NCBI GenBank assembly: GCA_046757025.1
Contig: JBHHXN010000006.1
Coordinates: forward strand, 1 to 64,000
Reading direction: 5' to 3'
DNA from: a bacterium
GTDB taxonomy: Bacteria; Zhuqueibacterota; Zhuqueibacteria; Oceanimicrobiales; Oceanimicrobiaceae
DNA: 64,000 nucleotides
In this document: one piece after another, positions 26,300 to 35,559 of the stretch
Layout: each line of letters starts with the position of its first letter
Numbering within the stretch: position 1 is the stretch's first letter
The notes under the pieces: model-generated
What the model was told of the DNA's origin: nothing
Seen by the model: the letters and a program-made list of their open reading frames with translations, nothing else
The model's database searches: none
Translations under genes and position numbers: made by a program

Positions 26300-27643
26300 T
26301 TGTTTACTTCGTCATCTGATCAGAAAGACCTGGCGGATAATGGCTTGACTACAGATGTTAAAAACATCATAGCAAAAAAAGACGATGAGATACAAAAACT
26401 TAAATCTGCGGTTGAAGAGTTAAGCGTATTAAACGATTTAGCTATTGATGCCAGCCTCTCCTTGGAAGTGGATCAGATGCTGGACATCATCGTGGAAAAA
26501 TCCATCAAGGCTGTGAAAGCAGAACAGGGCTCCATTTTGCTGGTTACGGAACAGGCTGATTCGCCATTAAAAACGCTCATTCGGCAGGCAGATGCAAGGA
26601 GCCGATTGCTCACTTACCGGGTGGGTACGCACATCACCGGCTGGGTGCTCAAAAATCAAAAACCGCTGATGATTGAAGATCTGGCAAACGACGACCGATT
26701 CCGGCCCACGGAGCAGGAAAGCAAAGAAATCCGTTCTGTTCTGTGTGTCCCCATCCGCTTAAAAGCCAAAATCATCGGTATTCTCATGGTGACCAACAAA
26801 AAGACCATGCAACCGTTTAGCGAAAGCGATTTGCGGCTGCTCTCCATCATCGCAGCGCAATCCGGCCAGCTCATTCGCAATTCACAACTGCAGCAGGAAG
26901 CCCTGGAAAAGAAACGATTGCAAGACGAATTAGCGGTGGCGCGCAAAATTCAACTTAGCTTACTGCCGAAAACCAGCCCGGAGATTGAGAATTTTGAAAT
27001 TGCCAATTACTTTAATCCGGCTACCGAGGTAGGCGGCGACTATTTCGACTATTTTCAGTTCGATGATTCACAATTTGGTCTTGTGCTGGCGGACGTCTCC
27101 GGACATGGGCCGTCTGCTGCCCTAGTGATGACGTTGGTTAAAGGTATTTTACACGCCATCACCCACAAATTCAGCTCTCCCGATACCTTGTTGGCGGAAA
27201 TGAATAAAATTCTCAGCGAGGTCATTCCCAAAGAGGTGTTTGTGACAATGGTGTTTTTAGTATTTGATCTGAAAGAAAACACACTGCGATTTTCCAATGC
27301 CGGGCATAATCCTATATTACACTATTCTCTCGATGGTAAGTCCTGTGGTAAAATAGAGCTCAAGGGCCCCGCACTCGGATTAACCAGTTTATCCGTGTAT
27401 CAGCAAATGGATATCCCCCTGTTTTCCGGGGACGTTATTTTAATTTACACCGACGGCGTGACCGAAGCTTTCAATCAAAAAGGTGACATGTTCGAAGAAG
27501 AGCGACTGCGGCAGGCTTTAAAACAGACCGCGTCGTACGACGCCCGCGCCATCATCGAAAATCTGCGAATGGCGCTTTATACATTTAAAGACGGCGCTCC
27601 GCAGGCTGATGACGAAGCCATGATCGCCGTAAAAATCAAGTAA
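26300..27643 (+). CDS. GAF + SpoIIE/PP2C phosphatase (RsbU-like)
   Basis: TTG start behind GAGAGG; GAF (SVLCVPI...NKK...FSESDLRLL); VGGDYFD, ADVSGHG, YTDGVTEA, QADDEA. Confidence 0.92.
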   Translation: MFTSSSDQKDLADNGLTTDVKNIIAKKDDEIQKLKSAVEELSVLNDLAIDASLSLEVDQMLDIIVEKSIKAVKAEQGSILLVTEQADSPLKTLIRQADARSRLLTYRVGTHITGWVLKNQKPLMIEDLANDDRFRPTEQESKEIRSVLCVPIRLKAKIIGILMVTNKKTMQPFSESDLRLLSIIAAQSGQLIRNSQLQQEALEKKRLQDELAVARKIQLSLLPKTSPEIENFEIANYFNPATEVGGDYFDYFQFDDSQFGLVLADVSGHGPSAALVMTLVKGILHAITHKFSSPDTLLAEMNKILSEVIPKEVFVTMVFLVFDLKENTLRFSNAGHNPILHYSLDGKSCGKIELKGPALGLTSLSVYQQMDIPLFSGDVILIYTDGVTEAFNQKGDMFEEERLRQALKQTASYDARAIIENLRMALYTFKDGAPQADDEAMIAVKIK

Positions 27644-28283: not shown

Positions 28284-29600
28284 TTGATAGAAATCAAAAA
28301 TTCAAAAAACCATGAAATAGCCAAGCTTACCGACGAAAACAACCGGCTAAAGAAATCCATTGAAGACCTGAAAATTATCAATGAACTGGCAAAAATTATC
28401 AGCTCAACCATTCCCGTGGAGCAGATTTTAAATAAAGTCACCACCGTGTCGGTTAGAGCCATTGGCGCGGAGCAGGGTACCATTTCATTGTTGAATGAAC
28501 AGGAAGAAGAGGATGAATTCAAAACGTTGATTCGAAAGGTCGATGCCTCAAAAGTGACCAACAAATATCGACTGGATGATGATTTGAGCGGCTGGATGAT
28601 TAAATATCGTAAACCGTTGATGATCACTAACTTTAATCAGGACCGTACCTTCAAAAGGCAATACGAAAATTCGGAGAAAATTCGCTCAATATTGAGTGTA
28701 CCGTTGGTATGCAAAGGCAAACTCATCGGCGTTTTGAATCTATTCAATAAAAAACAGGATGGCCAGTTTACGCTTGATGATCAACGCCTGTTATCCATCA
28801 TTGCATCGCAGTCGGCACAGGTGATTGAAAATGCCCGGTTATATGAAGAAGAGGAGCAGCTGCGTCTCATTGAGCAAGAGCTGAAAACGGCCCATGCCAT
28901 TCAGGTGGGACTGCTGCCGAAAGAGAGTCCGCGAATTAGCGGATTTGATGTGGCCGGCCGAAGTTATCCGGCCACAGAGGTAGGCGGCGACTATTTTGAT
29001 TTTATTGAACTGGATGACCACCTCTGGGGCATTGCGTTGGGCGATGTTTCGGGCAAAGGCATTCCGGCCGCGTTGCTGATGTCCAATTTACAGGCTACGC
29101 TGCGGAATCAGGCCTTGCACAACGCTTCTCTGGTTGAATGCATAGAAAAGGCTAATCAATTTTTGTGTTACAACACTGAATCCACCAAATTCGTCACGCT
29201 TTTTTGTGGAAAACTAAATTCAGAAAAGCGAACTTTTCAATTTGTCAATGCTGGACACAATTTTCCATTTTACCTTAACACCAAAGGGGAATTTGAAACG
29301 TTGGAAATCGGCGGGGTGGTACTCGGCATGATTCCCGAGTTTACCTTTGATCAAGGCGAGGTGCATTTGCAGCCTGGAGAAATTATTGTGGTTTATTCCG
29401 ACGGAGTGACCGAAGCAGAAAACGAACTAGAGGAATTGCTCGGTGAGGAACGGTTAAAAAACATTATTTTGGATAATCGTCATTTAAGTGCTCAGGAACT
29501 GGTTGAAATTATTTATCAAAAAGTGAAAGAATTTAGCGGTGCGGCGAAACAGGACGATGACATCACCATCGTCGTATTGAAAGCAGAAAACGCTCATTAA
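28284..29600 (+). CDS. GAF + SpoIIE/PP2C phosphatase (RsbU-like), second paralog
   Basis: TTG start behind AAGGAG; SILSVPL...NKK; VGGDYFD, GDVSGKG, YSDGVTEA, QDDDIT. Confidence 0.92.
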   Translation: MIEIKNSKNHEIAKLTDENNRLKKSIEDLKIINELAKIISSTIPVEQILNKVTTVSVRAIGAEQGTISLLNEQEEEDEFKTLIRKVDASKVTNKYRLDDDLSGWMIKYRKPLMITNFNQDRTFKRQYENSEKIRSILSVPLVCKGKLIGVLNLFNKKQDGQFTLDDQRLLSIIASQSAQVIENARLYEEEEQLRLIEQELKTAHAIQVGLLPKESPRISGFDVAGRSYPATEVGGDYFDFIELDDHLWGIALGDVSGKGIPAALLMSNLQATLRNQALHNASLVECIEKANQFLCYNTESTKFVTLFCGKLNSEKRTFQFVNAGHNFPFYLNTKGEFETLEIGGVVLGMIPEFTFDQGEVHLQPGEIIVVYSDGVTEAENELEELLGEERLKNIILDNRHLSAQELVEIIYQKVKEFSGAAKQDDDITIVVLKAENAH

Positions 29601-29639
29601 TAACGGATTCGGATAGCAAAAAGTCATTTGTCGAGTTGT

Positions 29640-30017
29640 ATGAAGATCATCTGTTTCCGGCTAATCTCAGGCATTTTTTGCACCCTCCTTCTGATCATGT
29701 TTAGTTGTAAAAACCGGCCTCCCGAAGATATCACCGATCCCGGACAATTGCTATATCTGGGCTATGTCAAAAAAAAAGTGAATTGTTCAAAATGTCACGG
29801 ACCGGACGGTCAGGGTGGATTGGACGCACCTGATATTCGGCCGGCTTTTAAGAAATTTGGCGAAAAAAAAATTGTCACGTTTATCCTGGAAGGCAAAGGC
29901 AAAGGTAAAAATGCCATGCCGCCGTTTGCCGATGAGATCACTTCTCTGGAGCTGGAGCAATTGATGCGCTTTCTGGAGACGCTTAAACCGCTTCCCGACA
30001 GCTTACAACCGGAGTAA
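29640..30017 (+). CDS. Monoheme cytochrome c lipoprotein
   Basis: Lipobox-like MFSC; heme motif CSKCH; distal Met in NAMPPF. Confidence 0.85.
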   Translation: MKIICFRLISGIFCTLLLIMFSCKNRPPEDITDPGQLLYLGYVKKKVNCSKCHGPDGQGGLDAPDIRPAFKKFGEKKIVTFILEGKGKGKNAMPPFADEITSLELEQLMRFLETLKPLPDSLQPE

Positions 30018-30019
30018 GT

Positions 30020-30060
30020 AAAAAAAGCGGCTATTCAATATCAAGAACAGCCGCTTTTCT
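30020..30060. terminator. Bidirectional intrinsic terminator
   Basis: AAAAGCGGCT...AGCCGCTTTT between the cytochrome c gene and the convergent kinase/peptide unit. Confidence 0.75.
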
Positions 30061-30158
30061 AATTGATCAAACCCTTCGCCTTTCACTGAAGGCAACAGTC
30101 GTCCTTCCCTGACAACAGAAAAGTCAATTTAATTTTGGGCATCAATCGAAAACATCAT

Positions 30159-30329
30159 CTATGGTGGTGGTTCCGTTGGATCGGCCAAAGATGCTGGGGG
30201 GGGTTCATTCGGATCTGCTTGAGCTGACGCCGGCGGTGGTTCGTTGGGATCCGCTTTTCCTTTTGAAAAAAGTCGAGACTTTAAACTCGACCACTTCCCC
30301 ATTTTCTCTTCGGCAGTTTTTTTATCCAT
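30159..30329 (-). CDS. 56-aa repeat peptide absent from the ORF track: MDKKTAEEKMGKWSSLKSRLFSKGKADPNEPPPASAQADPNEPPPASLADPTEPPP
   Basis: Hand translation; near-perfect Shine-Dalgarno AAAGGAGGTGA just upstream; starts 18 nt after the kinase stop; three ADP(N/T)EPPP repeats with different codons. Confidence 0.85.
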   Translation of the reverse strand: MDKKTAEEKMGKWSSLKSRLFSKGKADPNEPPPASAQADPNEPPPASLADPTEPPP

Positions 30330-30347
30330 GAAATTCACCTCCTTTCA

Positions 30348-33113
30348 TTACTTTTTAGAGTTCGCTGGCAAATTTGAAATTTTATTATTTAAAAATGCAA
30401 CTTTTTGTAAATTACCATCCGCTCCGGCCCAAAAATCAAGAGCTAAGCGGTAGGTGTGAAAAGCCTCTTCCGGCGCGTTATCTTTTTCATAAGCCTCTGC
30501 TAATCCTAACAGCGCATAGACATTCTGTGGATTGAATTGCAAGGCTAATTTATACGTTTCAATGGCATTCTGAAGTTGACCAGCTTGTGAATAACCATCC
30601 GCTAATGCTTTCAAATAGAATGACCGGTTCAATGGAAACAAATCCAGAGCCTTTTTAAAAGAGACCTCAGCTTCATCATAATCTTCTGCAAACAAGGAGA
30701 CCATCCCTTGCAAATGATGCAAAAACCACCTTCCTTCCAGCTCTCCCAACGACGCGAAGGATCGCTCAAGAATGGCGATTTCGTGGAAAATTTCTTGTCG
30801 GTTGCCATTTTCCAGCAAGATTAAACCACGCAGCCAGTGCGCTTCCAGATTGTTGGGATTAGTAATGATGGCATCATCAATGGTCGTTTCCGCAACTGGC
30901 AGGTTGCCCGTTCTTAAATGCACCATGGCCAGATTGGTATAACCCATGGATTTAAAATAATTACCGGCAGAAGTATTGACATACTTCGTTAAAACTTTTT
31001 CTGCTTGCGAGTATTTTCCCTGACCCGACAACGCCTGCGCAAGTCGAATGGGTACGTATTTAAAATCCGGCTGCAAGGCGAGAATGCGGTCACAAATAGT
31101 CACGGCTTCTTCATATTCGCCGATGAGTACCAGGATTTCCGCCATGGAGTCGAGCGGATTGACGTCGGTGGGATTCAACTGCATTAACTTATCCATCATG
31201 GCCAGGGCTTTTTCCTTTTCACCTTTGGCCAGAAAAGCATAACCAAGCGTGTTGTAGGCAAGCACGTAGGTCGAATCCAGCTCGATGGACTTTTGAATTT
31301 CCGAAATGCCCGCATCGATTTGACGAAATTTTCGGTATTGCGTCCAGCCATATTTATAATGCGTAGAGGCTTTAAAGGGGTTGATTTTGAGCAACCTTTT
31401 CTGATGAGATGCATACTCCTGCCAGCGATGTTCAATCCGGGCTTCATTACTTAAGTATTCCAATCTCATTTCAAGAGAAAGATTTTCAATATACGGTTTA
31501 CCGCTTGATAACACTTGTTTGGCTTTGTTTCGATTCCCGATGAGGGAATATTGCCACGCCAGGTAATAATACGGTTCGATGAATGTGGAATCCAGGGAGA
31601 TTGCTTTATTCAAGAGGGCAATGCTCTCCTTGTGCCGCAGATCCAGTGCAGCATCCTTGCCTTCTACGTAATAGCGAAATGCGTCCAGGGAGGAAGTGGT
31701 CAAAGACGCCACGCTGCTTTCTACCACATTTTCAGCAGCTTCAAAATTCAACACCCCGACCAATTGCGAAGTAAACTCATCGACGAGATTATAAAGCTGG
31801 CTGATATTGCTCTCCAGGGGTTTCAATGACGCAACAGACGTGCCTTTACGGCTGTCTAAAATCTCCGCCTCCACCTGAATGGTTTCGTTTTGTTTGTTGA
31901 GTTTACCGACAATGACCTTTTGGGCATTGGCTTTTTGCGCAATTCGAATAGCTTCTTCCCGTGTGACGTTTTTGTTTTGGATGCCTAAATTCTGCATGAT
32001 CTGATTCCTCTGTTCCGCGCTCAAAACGCGTATGGTGGAATCCTGGGACAAATCGGTATTCAATAAATCCATAAAAGCACCACTCAGCCACGACCAGTCT
32101 TCATCGACATTGTCCAGATAAAAAGGCATAATGGCGATAGCCGTACCCACCTCGTGCATTTTGCTTTCCGGCCTTAGTATGGCAAACAAAACGATGAGCA
32201 GAAGACCTAAAGAAAGACCGCCGAGTGTCGCAAACATTCGTTTTCGACTGAATTTTGGTTTTGGCTTGGGGGAAGTCTGCGCGGTTTTTGTTGCCCTTTC
32301 ATCGAGCAACTCTTTCAATGTTAACTCAATTTCTCTGGCGTTTTGAATTCGGACCTCCAAGTCTTTTGCCAGAGCTTTGGTCACTAACTGTTGGTATTTA
32401 TCAGATATCTCAGGTCGGATGCTGCAAATGGCTTCGGGTTCCTCATTGATGATGGCATAACCGATGGCCGCGCTGTATTCGCCTTGAAACGGTTGTCTGC
32501 CAGTACCGAGCTCGTACAAAACCGTACCCAGCGAAAAGATATCGCTGCGGTGATCGACTGGCAATCCCTGTAATTGCTCGGGAGACATGTAAGCCGCGGT
32601 GCCGATAACGCTTTCCTGCCGGGTGATTTGCGTCAGGTTTGCGACCTTTGCCAAACCGAAATCGAGAATCTTGACTTGACCGTCTTTCGTTAAGATGATA
32701 TTGCCCGGCTTGATATCCCTGTGAATGATGCCCTTTTGGTGCGCTTCTGCCAATCCCCGGGCAATTTGCACACCGATGGCATAAACTTTATCTATAGGGA
32801 TTTCAGATTTAAGCAGAAGGCTTTGCAGCGTATCGCCAGGGTAGTAGCCCATGCTGATAAACATGTAATCGTCGGATTCGTCGATTTCATACACCATGGC
32901 AATGTTTGGATGCTCCAAAGCAGAAATGGCTTTCGCTTCTTGAACGAATCTCTGACGAAACTCTGAGTCAGCAAGAAATTCTTTGTTTAGAAATTTCAGA
33001 GCAACCAGCCGGTCCAGTTTTAAGTCCTTTGCCTTATAAACGACACCCATGCCGCCGCTGCCAATTTCTTCAAGTATTTTATAATGAGATAACTGTCGTC
33101 CGACCAAGTTCAT
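30348..33113 (-). CDS. Membrane Hanks-type Ser/Thr protein kinase with C-terminal TolB-N-like domain and TPR repeats
   Basis: IGSGGMGVVY, VALKFL, HRDIKPGN, DFGLAK, YMSPEQ; TM LGGLSLGLLLIVLFAIL; IAIMPF domain; many TPR-like units. Confidence 0.95.
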   Translation of the reverse strand: MNLVGRQLSHYKILEEIGSGGMGVVYKAKDLKLDRLVALKFLNKEFLADSEFRQRFVQEAKAISALEHPNIAMVYEIDESDDYMFISMGYYPGDTLQSLLLKSEIPIDKVYAIGVQIARGLAEAHQKGIIHRDIKPGNIILTKDGQVKILDFGLAKVANLTQITRQESVIGTAAYMSPEQLQGLPVDHRSDIFSLGTVLYELGTGRQPFQGEYSAAIGYAIINEEPEAICSIRPEISDKYQQLVTKALAKDLEVRIQNAREIELTLKELLDERATKTAQTSPKPKPKFSRKRMFATLGGLSLGLLLIVLFAILRPESKMHEVGTAIAIMPFYLDNVDEDWSWLSGAFMDLLNTDLSQDSTIRVLSAEQRNQIMQNLGIQNKNVTREEAIRIAQKANAQKVIVGKLNKQNETIQVEAEILDSRKGTSVASLKPLESNISQLYNLVDEFTSQLVGVLNFEAAENVVESSVASLTTSSLDAFRYYVEGKDAALDLRHKESIALLNKAISLDSTFIEPYYYLAWQYSLIGNRNKAKQVLSSGKPYIENLSLEMRLEYLSNEARIEHRWQEYASHQKRLLKINPFKASTHYKYGWTQYRKFRQIDAGISEIQKSIELDSTYVLAYNTLGYAFLAKGEKEKALAMMDKLMQLNPTDVNPLDSMAEILVLIGEYEEAVTICDRILALQPDFKYVPIRLAQALSGQGKYSQAEKVLTKYVNTSAGNYFKSMGYTNLAMVHLRTGNLPVAETTIDDAIITNPNNLEAHWLRGLILLENGNRQEIFHEIAILERSFASLGELEGRWFLHHLQGMVSLFAEDYDEAEVSFKKALDLFPLNRSFYLKALADGYSQAGQLQNAIETYKLALQFNPQNVYALLGLAEAYEKDNAPEEAFHTYRLALDFWAGADGNLQKVAFLNNKISNLPANSKK

Positions 33114-33448: not shown

Positions 33449-33829
33449 TTGAAAAATCGAAAAAAATTAGCCGATGCCGAATGGGAAATTATGAACGGCA
33501 TCTGGCACTTCAAAAAGCCCGTCACCGTCCGCGAAATGCACGCTCATCTTTATCCGAAAGGGGAGAAAGCCTATACGACGGTGCAAACCATCATGAATAT
33601 TTTAGTCGAAAAAAAATTTTTAAGGAAAGATAAAATCGGTATGGTCAATTTTTACTTTCCCATTGTGGCGTATGAAGATTTCACCAGGCAGGAGACCCGA
33701 ACCCTGGTTTCGCGCATTTTTGACGGCTCTTTTGGCGCGTTGGCAACTTATCTGGTGGATTCGGGAGAGCTTTCGCAAGAAGAGTTAATTCAACTGAAAG
33801 CGCTCATCAATTCAAAAAAGAAAGAATAA
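33449..33829 (+). CDS. BlaI/MecI/CopY family repressor
   Basis: LADAEWEIMNGIW, AYTTVQTIMNILVEKKFL, RIFDGS; TTG start behind AGGAGG. Confidence 0.92.
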   Translation: MKNRKKLADAEWEIMNGIWHFKKPVTVREMHAHLYPKGEKAYTTVQTIMNILVEKKFLRKDKIGMVNFYFPIVAYEDFTRQETRTLVSRIFDGSFGALATYLVDSGELSQEELIQLKALINSKKKE

Positions 33830-33843
33830 TAGCGAGGCAAATC

Positions 33844-35559
33844 ATGAATGTGATTCATCAATTTGCAGAAACCTGGATGAGATTCTATGTGATTCATTTG
33901 CTTGAAATGTCACTTTTCATTATACTCATCTGGTTTACTGATAAATTCTTACGACTTCAAACCTGGTCACGCTATCTGCTCTGGATTCTGGCGTTGGTGA
34001 AAATCTTTGTTCCACCCGTTTTTACGTTTCCTTCAACCAGGCCATCGCTGGTTACCGGACCGATGATTTATCTGCCTACTGTTTCACCATCTCCCTTGGC
34101 TGGGCCGCAAACTTTGCAGGCGATTTTTCCACTTCTGTTGTTTGGGTTGTGGATTTCCTGGGTTGGTTCGATGACGTATTTTATGGTGGTTAAAAATAGA
34201 AATTTTCAAAGACGCTTGCTAGACGCAAAACCCATTTCGAACCTGACTGAAACAAAGCTGAGTACCTGCTTGCCAATTTATGTTTCAAGTCAAATCCAAT
34301 CCCCCGTTCTTTTTGGCGCGTGGAAACAGAAATTGTATTTGCCTATTGAATGGCAAAACTGGTCAGACAAGGAGCTAAAAAGCATCGTAGCCCACGAAAC
34401 CGCCCATTTTCATAAACGGGATATTTGGGTGTTGATTTTACAACATCTGGCCATTGTCTTGTTTGGGGTCAATCCATTAATCTGGTTAGTACATAATCGA
34501 TTGAATTATGTGCGTGAATTGAATTGTGATGAAATGGCCATCCAGCACTCTGGCATAAAACCTGTAGAGTACAGCCAGCTCATCTACTCGTTTATTGAGA
34601 AACAGGCACAACCGCCCGGTCTCGTAATCATGGGCAAATCGTTTTTCAACAACGATCAATCTTTAATTAAGCGTATGAATAATATTCTTAAATTCGAGGA
34701 GTCTAACATGAAAATCAAATCAATTTGGCAAGTCATTTTATCGATTTTTTTGGCGGTTTTGATTTTACCGTTTTCCTGGAAGTGTGCTGAAAAGCCGTCT
34801 GATCAGAGCCTTGGTAAAGAGTTTACTCCCGGCCTTGTCCAGCCACAAACGGACATTTCATCAGAAAAATCTGAGAAATTTCAGCCCTTTAATGAACCTC
34901 CCAAACCCATCGGGGGATTTCAAGCGATTCAAGCAAATATTCATTATCCGGAGATAGCAAGAAAAGCCGGTATGGAAGAAACGGTTATCGTGCAAGTTTA
35001 TGTTGATGAACACGGCGAAGTGGCGGATGCCACCGTTTTGAGGACGAAAAATGGCGGCGAGCCGGGCTTCAAAGAAGCGGCCCTTGCCGCGGTCAAAAAA
35101 GTGAAGTGGCAACCTGCGCTTTGGAAAGGCAAACCCGTGGCGGTGCAGGTGGCGATTCCAGTGATTTTTCAATTGGCCAGCGATGGAGTCTCGTCTCCGG
35201 ATAAAGAGCCTAAAGTATTCCAATTTTCTATACCCAATAATAAAGTGAAATTTCAGCCATTCGATGAAGCTCCGCAACCGGTGGGCGGATTCACAGCTAT
35301 CCAGAAAAACCTGCAGTATCCGGTGATTGCGCGCAAAGCGGGCATCGAAGGGCGGGTTGTCATCAATATTTTGGTATCAGCACAAGGAGAAATTGCCGAT
35401 GCGGTAGTGATGAAATCGTTAGGGCATAGCGGCTGTGATGAAGCGGCAATCAATGCACTCAAGAGTGTTAAGTGGCGGCCGGCGAAAAATAAAGGCCAGG
35501 CGGTGGAGATGTGGGTCGCGATTCCCGTTGAGTTTAAATTATCCGAAACGGTTAAATAG
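33844..35559 (+). CDS. BlaR1-like M56 metallopeptidase fused to two TonB C-terminal domains
   Basis: AHETAH, NPLIW, RELNCD; two copies of YP(E/V)IARKAG...V...G..AD...AA...KW.PA..KG..V...IPV.F.L. Confidence 0.9.
   Translation: MNVIHQFAETWMRFYVIHLLEMSLFIILIWFTDKFLRLQTWSRYLLWILALVKIFVPPVFTFPSTRPSLVTGPMIYLPTVSPSPLAGPQTLQAIFPLLLFGLWISWVGSMTYFMVVKNRNFQRRLLDAKPISNLTETKLSTCLPIYVSSQIQSPVLFGAWKQKLYLPIEWQNWSDKELKSIVAHETAHFHKRDIWVLILQHLAIVLFGVNPLIWLVHNRLNYVRELNCDEMAIQHSGIKPVEYSQLIYSFIEKQAQPPGLVIMGKSFFNNDQSLIKRMNNILKFEESNMKIKSIWQVILSIFLAVLILPFSWKCAEKPSDQSLGKEFTPGLVQPQTDISSEKSEKFQPFNEPPKPIGGFQAIQANIHYPEIARKAGMEETVIVQVYVDEHGEVADATVLRTKNGGEPGFKEAALAAVKKVKWQPALWKGKPVAVQVAIPVIFQLASDGVSSPDKEPKVFQFSIPNNKVKFQPFDEAPQPVGGFTAIQKNLQYPVIARKAGIEGRVVINILVSAQGEIADAVVMKSLGHSGCDEAAINALKSVKWRPAKNKGQAVEMWVAIPVEFKLSETVK

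Follow-up and report, generated by a model that had tools for sequence, protein, structure and literature searches.

A polyproline micro-protein gene that appears tied to one orthogroup of Hanks-type kinases in related uncultured bacteria

Immediately behind the gene for a large Hanks-type serine/threonine kinase, the 64,000-nt stretch of contig JBHHXN010000006.1 considered here (the window, in whose coordinates all positions are given) contains a very small gene of 56 codons and a TAG stop (30159..30329), whose translation ends in a proline-rich core. Comparison with orthologous kinase loci indicates that this small open reading frame (ORF) is a real gene, tied to a single kinase orthogroup in related uncultured bacteria. 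Both genes lie on the minus strand: the kinase gene ends with the TAA at 30350-30348, and the small ORF runs from the ATG at 30329-30327 to the TAG at 30161-30159 (56 aa), leaving a gap of 18 nt between the kinase stop and the new start. That gap holds an extended Shine–Dalgarno (SD) sequence, AAAGGAGGTGA (30335..30345, minus strand), with the core GGAGG ending 8 nt 5' of the ATG. The same 11-mer occurs 17 times in the 5.96-Mb genome, and the shorter AGGAGGTGA 46 times; because the latter is common and in some cases precedes ordinary long ORFs, we take the element to be a strong, normal ribosome-binding site and not a special device, and it ranks among the strongest in the genome.

The predicted peptide is strongly polarized in charge, with a net +5 over residues 1-25 and -6 over the remainder. 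Its N-terminal part contains a putative basic amphipathic helix (residues 9-23; 30261..30305), suggested by the periodicity of its hydrophobic residues and matching the motif K-K-x-G-[LIMF]-W-x-R-[IL]...[FL]-S-K-K shared by the longer members of the family. Three cores follow: ADPNEPPP at residues 26-33 (30231..30254), ADPNEPPP again at residues 38-45 (30195..30218), and ADPTEPPP at residues 49-56 (30162..30185), which forms the C-terminus and corresponds to the one [DE]-P-x-x-(P/G)-P-P core that the orthologues carry at their C-terminal end. A preliminary description of this stretch had reported a 56-aa ORF with a near-perfect SD 18 nt from the kinase stop, a basic 25-aa leader, three ADP(N/T)EPPP cores of which the last is the C-terminus, and a terminator about 100 nt downstream; each of these features can be read in the DNA.

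To delimit the kinase orthogroup, we drew on a search of 41 genomes (the genome of the window and 40 relatives), which gave kinase matches over the full length, at 42-47% identity, in ten genomes besides that of the window, matches cut by contig ends in two more, and, on contig C53 of the window's own genome, a paralogue; with the TPR half of the kinase as query, 12 of the 21 genomes of the family match at E <= 1e-60. A metagenome scan contributed nine extra loci, three of them duplicates of genome loci and one ending inside the kinase. Conservation was then counted over the 19 distinct orthologous loci that include the kinase 3' end and downstream DNA. A strong SD, an ATG, and a short ORF follow the kinase stop at a distance of 3-36 nt in 16 of these 19 loci, with the ATG placed 7-9 nt after GGAGG and the exact AAAGGAGGTGA present in 14 of the 16; at one of the 19 (L122), the downstream DNA contains Ns. 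The preliminary description had itself named a lack of comparable small ORFs behind homologous kinases as a refuting result; the ORF is instead conserved, and we take it to be a real gene with a functional tie to this kinase. Fourteen of the ORFs are complete, with lengths of 9, 10, 13, 16, 19, 22, 22, 40, 42, 44, 49, 50, 56, and 57 aa; the other two are cut by contig ends after 5 and 12 codons. Relative to the kinase gene, the reading frame of the ORF is 0, 1, or 2 depending on the locus, and we accordingly rejected read-through, or a C-terminal extension of the kinase, as an account of it. The kinase tree is star-like, with good support for only 2 of its 16 inner branches, so that transitions between long and short ORFs cannot be counted.

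Two controls address how often such an arrangement would arise by chance. Within the genome of the window, there are 2979 long open frames with 300 nt or more of sequence behind them; 154 of them are followed by GGAGG and a start, 32 of those open an ORF of 8-70 aa, and just two of the 2979 frames yield an ORF containing PP[PGD] or GPP, one of the two being the present locus. The second control consists of a further 86 kinase loci, both paralogues and distant kinases, taken from a contig scan with the full kinase alignment and matched through the generic catalytic-loop pattern. Among the 54 that were usable (with a stop and 150 nt or more of DNA behind it), four have an SD and a start, one has a small ORF, and none (0/54) has the proline motif. 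As a background, PPP occurs at 1.4e-4 per residue in the long frames of the same genome, where 153 of 3191 frames contain it.

The peptides share two modules, which we defined on an alignment of seven members together with four small proteins (P0009, P0011, P0016, and P0017) recovered by profile search. Module A, present in nine long forms, is the lysine-flanked N-terminal motif given above; its hydrophobic positions are spaced i, i+1, i+4, i+5, i+8, the pattern of an amphipathic helix, and it stands at a variable distance of about 19-35 residues from the proline run. Module B is the C-terminal [DE]-P-x-x-(P/G)-P-P-(P/D/G), present in nearly all members and often followed by glycine or acidic residues; the peptide of the window has three copies, that of G004 two, and the other members one. 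By-eye counts over 18 complete peptides found PP in 17 and PPP in 13. In all 17 PP-bearing peptides, the last PP lies 0-7 residues from the C-terminus, and in 15 of the 17, a serine or threonine lies within three residues of the proline run. The short forms (seven orthologues, 9-22 aa) have no leader and consist of little beyond the initial methionine and module B; G011 is the exception among them, lacking PP altogether and keeping only T-P-G-G-G. Across the same pairs of loci, the identity of the peptides follows that of the C-terminal (TPR) domains of the kinases (peptide/kinase 0.57/0.59, 0.46/0.54, 0.44/0.58, and 0.30/0.42), and at such divergence 150 nt of unconstrained DNA would be unalignable, which argues that selection acts on the peptide product, or at least on the nascent chain.

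The family is a narrow one. A word-based search of public protein collections returned the identical 56-aa protein and five relatives, unnamed or annotated as "hypothetical protein", so that the gene is not hidden, as the preliminary description had called it. A hidden Markov model (HMM) built from the seven members gave 16 matches at E <= 0.001 among 1.84 billion representatives, ten of which are small proteins of 40-60 aa; the other six are long proteins matched through short stretches, which in both of the cases inspected proved to be an unrelated repeat. Among small proteins in that same collection, the HMM finds no family besides this one. In 23 genomes of the order, it gives six matches at E <= 1e-8, every one of them directly behind an orthologous kinase, and the genome of the window holds no second copy of the peptide gene. 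Pfam returned no match for the peptide, and no usable neighbor was obtained from the ESM Atlas, which includes the 56-aa sequence. We found no description of the family in the open-access full text searched. This is, then, a new micro-protein family, limited to one order and attached to one orthogroup of Hanks kinases. For comparison with the N-terminal helix, we also looked for MinD, of which the genome has no true representative (best match 80.5 bits versus a cut-off of 212.9). At the N-terminus of the FtsY encoded in the genome, there is a basic amphipathic pattern with a loose resemblance, which we record as a lead only.

The position of the small ORF on the kinase transcript follows from what lies beyond its stop. 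A bidirectional intrinsic terminator (30018..30060, both strands) is common to the small ORF and to a convergent cytochrome c gene; on the small-ORF side it is a hairpin of 16 bp followed by a U-run (30060-30021; -23.6 kcal/mol, z -6.2, matched by 0 of 200 shuffles), about 100 nt past the small ORF. In a simple scan of 14 loci, hairpins with a T-run at or below -13 kcal/mol stand 84-157 nt past the small-ORF stop in nine, weaker candidates in three, and none in two. We read the small ORF as co-transcribed with the kinase gene, of whose transcript it would form the last cistron. Between stop and terminator lies a structured 3' untranslated region (UTR; 30061..30158, minus strand), and the segment 30158-30018 folds at -48.3 kcal/mol (z -5.4). 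This UTR contains GAT[CT]GATGCCCAA at 30135-30147, a 13-nt motif found as a single copy in the 5.96-Mb genome. The motif recurs at the equivalent place in L109 and L114, 13-20 nt past the small-ORF stops, where the kinases of the three loci are about 45% identical; it is absent from the other 11 loci. A search of Rfam gave no family match, the sole hit being a sub-threshold L20-leader (18.7 bits versus a gathering score of 58.7, E 0.83).

Several further observations concern the ORF and its immediate surroundings. A promoter-like site (TTTACA, 16 nt, AATAAT at 30411-30384, minus strand; 10 of 12 matches), recognized by consensus alone, lies within the last 65 nt of the kinase gene and could allow the small ORF to be transcribed independently. 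Inside the ORF, over the codons of the amphipathic helix, there is a hairpin of 7 bp followed by a T-run (30292-30271, minus strand; -13.8 kcal/mol, z -3.65), for which no counterpart was seen by eye in the orthologous sequences inspected. We rejected it as a terminator on that ground and because five terminator-like sites were found in the region versus 5.1 expected in shuffles. Four sequencing runs, all of DNA and from one study, carry the locus. In one of them (X4), a C>G difference at 30186 turns TTG into TTC and thus Leu48 into Phe, in the spacer ahead of the third core; it is the sole difference inside the ORF, with five additional differences in the 2 kb compared, and is too little to infer selection.

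The kinase itself (921 aa; 30348..33113, minus strand) was characterized by means of Pfam, hydropathy, and an AlphaFold2 model. It comprises a catalytic domain (residues 11-257), a transmembrane helix (about 291-317), an unassigned domain of about 150 aa, and a solenoid of tetratricopeptide repeats (TPRs; about 475-921, some 13 repeats). The Pfam Pkinase match is strong (184 bits versus a cut-off of 31.7, E 4.1e-54), and many TPR families match at residues of about 600-900. Eleven orthologues are invariant at K40, H131-R132-D133, N138, and D151-F152-G153, which correspond to the Hanks catalytic lysine, the HRD...N loop, and the DFG motif. Hydropathy shows a single hydrophobic segment (in windows that begin at 291-299), with a stretch rich in lysine and arginine ahead of it; since the single helix is the only membrane crossing and the catalytic domain is necessarily cytoplasmic, the roughly 600 residues past the helix, including the TPR solenoid, are predicted to be periplasmic. 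The AlphaFold2 model of residues 460-921 (predicted local distance difference test score, pLDDT, of 92.7) contains 26 helices, or about 13 TPRs. Among the Foldseek matches listed, the nearest solved folds are O-GlcNAc transferase, SPINDLY, subunits of the APC/C, TTC7B, the SKI complex, and Tom71, with TM-scores of 0.3-0.58; no RRNPP receptor is among those matches, which is weak evidence given how generic TPR folds are. In O-GlcNAc transferase, the APC/C, and Tom71, what the TPRs bind is an extended peptide or a C-terminal tail. When the full-length kinase (alignment A1) and the peptide (A3) were co-folded, the score was 0.02 (mark 0.32), which weighs neither way. Hanks-type kinases are numerous in these bacteria: the searches gave at least 24 matches in the genome of the window (G000) and 9-29 for every one of the 40 relatives, many with a length of about 800-1000 aa. 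A second kinase of the orthogroup, 45% identical over its full length, is encoded in the same genome (L113; G000 contig C53:2999-5716) without SD or small ORF, so that a pair with and without the peptide gene exists in one cell.

We compared the wider neighborhoods in 11 regions of up to 22 kb each. Two tandem genes for GAF-SpoIIE (PP2C-type) phosphatases (26300-27643 and 28284-29600, plus strand) and a small cytochrome c gene (29628-30017, plus strand) converge on the kinase operon in the window, and a GAF-SpoIIE phosphatase and a cytochrome c gene do so in 5 of the 11 regions. The next gene past the small ORF is likewise convergent in the window and in four further regions (5/11). Upstream of the kinase gene, in divergent orientation, stand genes for a BlaI-type repressor (33449-33829, plus strand) and a BlaR1 (peptidase M56) protein with a TonB C-terminal domain (33844-35559, plus strand), a pair found in 4 of the 11 regions. 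The spacing of 3-36 nt between the kinase stop and the small ORF is kept although these flanking genes change. No conserved transporter, exporter, or processing protease was found across the 11 neighborhoods. In two genomes with short forms, a gene for a C1-family (aminopeptidase C-like) peptidase lies past the small ORF and terminator in the same direction (L139:8224-9525 in G013 and L144:6339-7481 in G002).

As to what the peptide does, we tentatively favor the view that it is a cytoplasmic, membrane-proximal micro-protein serving its kinase as substrate, pseudosubstrate, or adaptor, in the manner of AfsS or the protein kinase A (PKA) inhibitor PKI. None of the 10 peptides scored has a hydrophobic stretch or a signal peptide (the highest 15-residue Kyte–Doolittle mean is 0.53), a point on which the preliminary description had been right; a peptide without a hydrophobic segment shares its side of the membrane with no part of the kinase other than the kinase domain. 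The product would thus remain in the cytoplasm and would act on, or be a target of, the catalytic side of the kinase. The N-terminal helix of the long forms, basic and amphipathic, may hold the protein against the inner membrane face or dock it on the kinase, with a flexible, charged linker displaying one to three acidic, Ser/Thr-flanked polyproline modules at the extreme C-terminus. These modules, which may be described as protease-resistant, would be the working part, whether as phospho-acceptor, pseudosubstrate, or adaptor motif, and their copy number (three here, two in G004, one elsewhere) could tune avidity; the short forms of 9-22 aa would be the bare module. The convergent GAF-PP2C (SpoIIE-type) phosphatases could undo the phosphorylation, which makes them candidate erasers and possible partners of the kinase. 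The serine or threonine near the PP run in 15 of 17 peptides speaks for a cytoplasmic partner, if weakly. Beyond the gene being real, conserved, co-transcribed, and under selection for its product, all of these steps are offered as proposals.

A number of observations weigh against the cytoplasmic-partner reading and should be set beside it. We know of no bacterial Hanks kinase that prefers proline-flanked acceptors. The position of the serine or threonine is variable, two PP-bearing peptides have none nearby, and an enrichment of these residues in what is probably a disordered tail would in any case be weak evidence, the peptides being related to one another and not independent. For the helix, the hydrophobic moment reaches no more than moderate values (0.42-0.75). 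Behind the kinases at the paralogous locus L113 and at L118, there is no SD-led small ORF, so that the kinase can do without one. Finally, the sole feature of all forms, namely a strong SD and a polyproline run near the stop, is also what one would ask of a purely translational device.

That device is the best surviving of the alternatives, possible but in our judgment somewhat unlikely. Here the strong SD would load ribosomes onto the mini-ORF and a PPP, DPP, PPG, or PPD run would stall them unless EF-P is active, so that the act of translation or stalling, and not the peptide, is the function; the outcome could be to set the stability of the mRNA, to use the nascent amphipathic helix as its membrane tether, or to report on proline or EF-P status. 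Ribosome stalling at PPP and its rescue by EF-P are described in PMC4176338, and short ORFs with proline-based arrest motifs are described as regulators in PMC12992588 and PMC8092293. In keeping with such a device, an extended SD and a proline run 0-7 codons before the stop are all that the forms have in common, those of 9-19 aa included; the motif is kept over a six-fold range of ORF lengths; and the genome contains efp above the family cut-off. On the other hand, there is no downstream target on which stalling could act, a clear terminator standing behind the ORF in 9 of 14 loci and the next gene being convergent in 5 of 11 regions. Module A is kept at the amino-acid level in nine long forms at a variable distance from the prolines, as expected of a product and not of a ruler for the exit tunnel; one orthologue, G011, lacks PP entirely; and PPP is not rare in the proteome (153 of 3191 long frames).

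We consider it unlikely that the peptide is instead an exported ligand of the TPR region, that is, that it leaves the cytoplasm by a non-Sec route, is processed to its C-terminal core or cores, and is sensed by the predicted periplasmic solenoid, which would amount to peptide signaling through a Hanks kinase in a diderm. The ORF is tightly linked to a sensor in which a superhelix of about 13 TPRs is the sole ligand-binding region, the core stands at the extreme C-terminus and is repeated (three times here, twice in G004), and a strong SD would suit a product made in excess. The peptides nevertheless lack a signal peptide or any hydrophobic stretch. The leaderless signals known so far are hydrophobic, and the present peptides are charged. 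Neither a conserved transporter nor a dedicated protease appears in the 11 neighborhoods, and RRNPP receptors are absent among the fold matches listed. Precedents for parts of the scheme do exist: tandemly duplicated pheromone cores occur in RRNPPA propeptides, as described in PMC11343458, and leaderless 8-aa signals in Firmicutes are described in PMC10518010. A specific version, equally improbable in our estimation, would be a leaderless or amphipathic-leader pheromone that uses an unrecognized export route and whose C-terminal core, acidic and rich in proline, is read by the TPR superhelix in an autocrine or quorum-type circuit centered on a eukaryote-like kinase, with the variants of three, two, and one cores and the fast-changing core constituting "pherotypes". 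The preliminary description had proposed an RRNPP-like ligand of this sort. The link between peptide and kinase that it drew is borne out by the conserved pairing; the ligand mechanism is not, in view of the predicted periplasmic TPRs, the missing export signal, the lack of a linked exporter, and the seven orthologues without a leader. Its own caveat, a cytoplasmic substrate, is the better reading.

It seems similarly doubtful that we are dealing with a genuine small protein of kinase-unrelated function that merely shares the transcript. The missing ORF at two members of the kinase orthogroup would be compatible with this, as would the promoter-like site at 30411-30384 in the kinase 3' end, which could drive the ORF alone. 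Against it, in 23 genomes of the order the HMM detects the family at no other place, all six matches at E <= 1e-8 lying directly behind an orthologous kinase; the genome has no second copy; and the position 3-36 nt behind the kinase is kept while the flanks change. That the ORF is spurious, its SD and proline codons owed to chance or to some non-coding cause, is highly improbable: small and low in complexity though it is, the controls (2/2979 and 0/54) speak otherwise, and 14 complete ORFs in frame-independent positions keep start, open frame, and motif across kinases that share no more than 42-59% identity.

Uncultured lineages are rich in Hanks-type kinases that carry large extracytoplasmic TPR sensors, and the ligands, substrates, and regulators of these kinases are hardly known. 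A dedicated micro-protein, apparently co-transcribed and selected, with a minimal and easily synthesized motif, offers an experimental handle on one such kinase, and any of the three mechanisms considered above (a cytoplasmic short-linear-motif partner, a 3'-end polyproline stalling device, or an exported ligand) would, if true, be new for this class. The present case also illustrates that ORFs down to nine codons can be recognized as genes through the combination of synteny, a strong SD, and a motif.

Several known systems invite comparison. In the RRNPP(A) pairs (Rap-Phr, NprR, PlcR-PapR, PrgX, AimR-AimP, and Rgg-SHP), a gene for a TPR-type receptor stands beside a small peptide gene, as described in PMC10075063, PMC9765709, and PMC11343458. 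The present locus resembles those pairs, in the terms of these accounts, in that a TPR-type gene adjoins a small peptide gene (at 18 nt here, and in 16 of 19 loci overall), in its C-terminal core, and in the tandem cores of some members. RRNPP receptors, however, are intracellular and fused to a helix-turn-helix (HTH) or phosphatase domain, whereas here a predicted periplasmic TPR region is joined to an N-terminal Pkinase domain and there is no HTH; RRNPP propeptides carry export signals, whereas the N-terminus of the present peptide is basic, amphipathic, and without one; and RRNPP systems belong to Firmicutes and their mobile elements. On receptor location, receptor architecture, and propeptide export signal, we therefore reject membership in that group. 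Like the proline-based arrest or leader mini-ORFs (EF-P-dependent, RAPP-type) described in PMC4176338 and PMC12992588, the gene is a short ORF with consecutive prolines near its end, for which dependence on EF-P would be expected. Those ORFs lie upstream of the gene that they regulate; the present one appears as the last cistron before a terminator and has long forms with a conserved, probably helical N-terminus, and with no downstream target it was rejected as a classical arrest or leader ORF.

Small proteins that modulate kinases include PKI for PKA and MgrB and SafA for PhoQ; in PKI, an amphipathic helix is joined to an extended stretch that serves as pseudosubstrate. KbpA, for AfsK, is a further small-protein modulator of this kind, as described in PMC10832544. 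What the present peptide may share with PKI, MgrB, SafA, and KbpA is the principle of a small protein dedicated to binding or regulating one kinase; it differs from them in that homology is absent, in that MgrB and SafA sit in the membrane as integral proteins, and in that none of the four is polyproline-based or the 3' cistron of a Hanks kinase gene. A nearer parallel is AfsS of Streptomyces, as set out in PMC10832544: a protein of 63-87 aa encoded immediately downstream of the TPR protein AfsR, poorly conserved but always with two to five short repeats, through which it binds AfsR in a manner dose-dependent on repeat number. AfsR is a cytoplasmic SARP-NOD-TPR transcription factor and not a membrane kinase, and afsS has its own AfsR-dependent promoter. 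The AfsS repeats are not polyproline, AfsS comes from a different phylum, and the presence of two to five repeats in every member is not seen here, where there are three in the window, two in G004, and a single core elsewhere; the likeness proposed is one of working principle. Both cases have, as far as the AfsS account describes, a small gene just downstream of a large TPR signaling gene, a connection to a Ser/Thr-kinase pathway, very low overall identity between species, and short repeats, and it is such a small, repeat-bearing partner of a signaling protein that the micro-protein described here would, in its working, most closely resemble.

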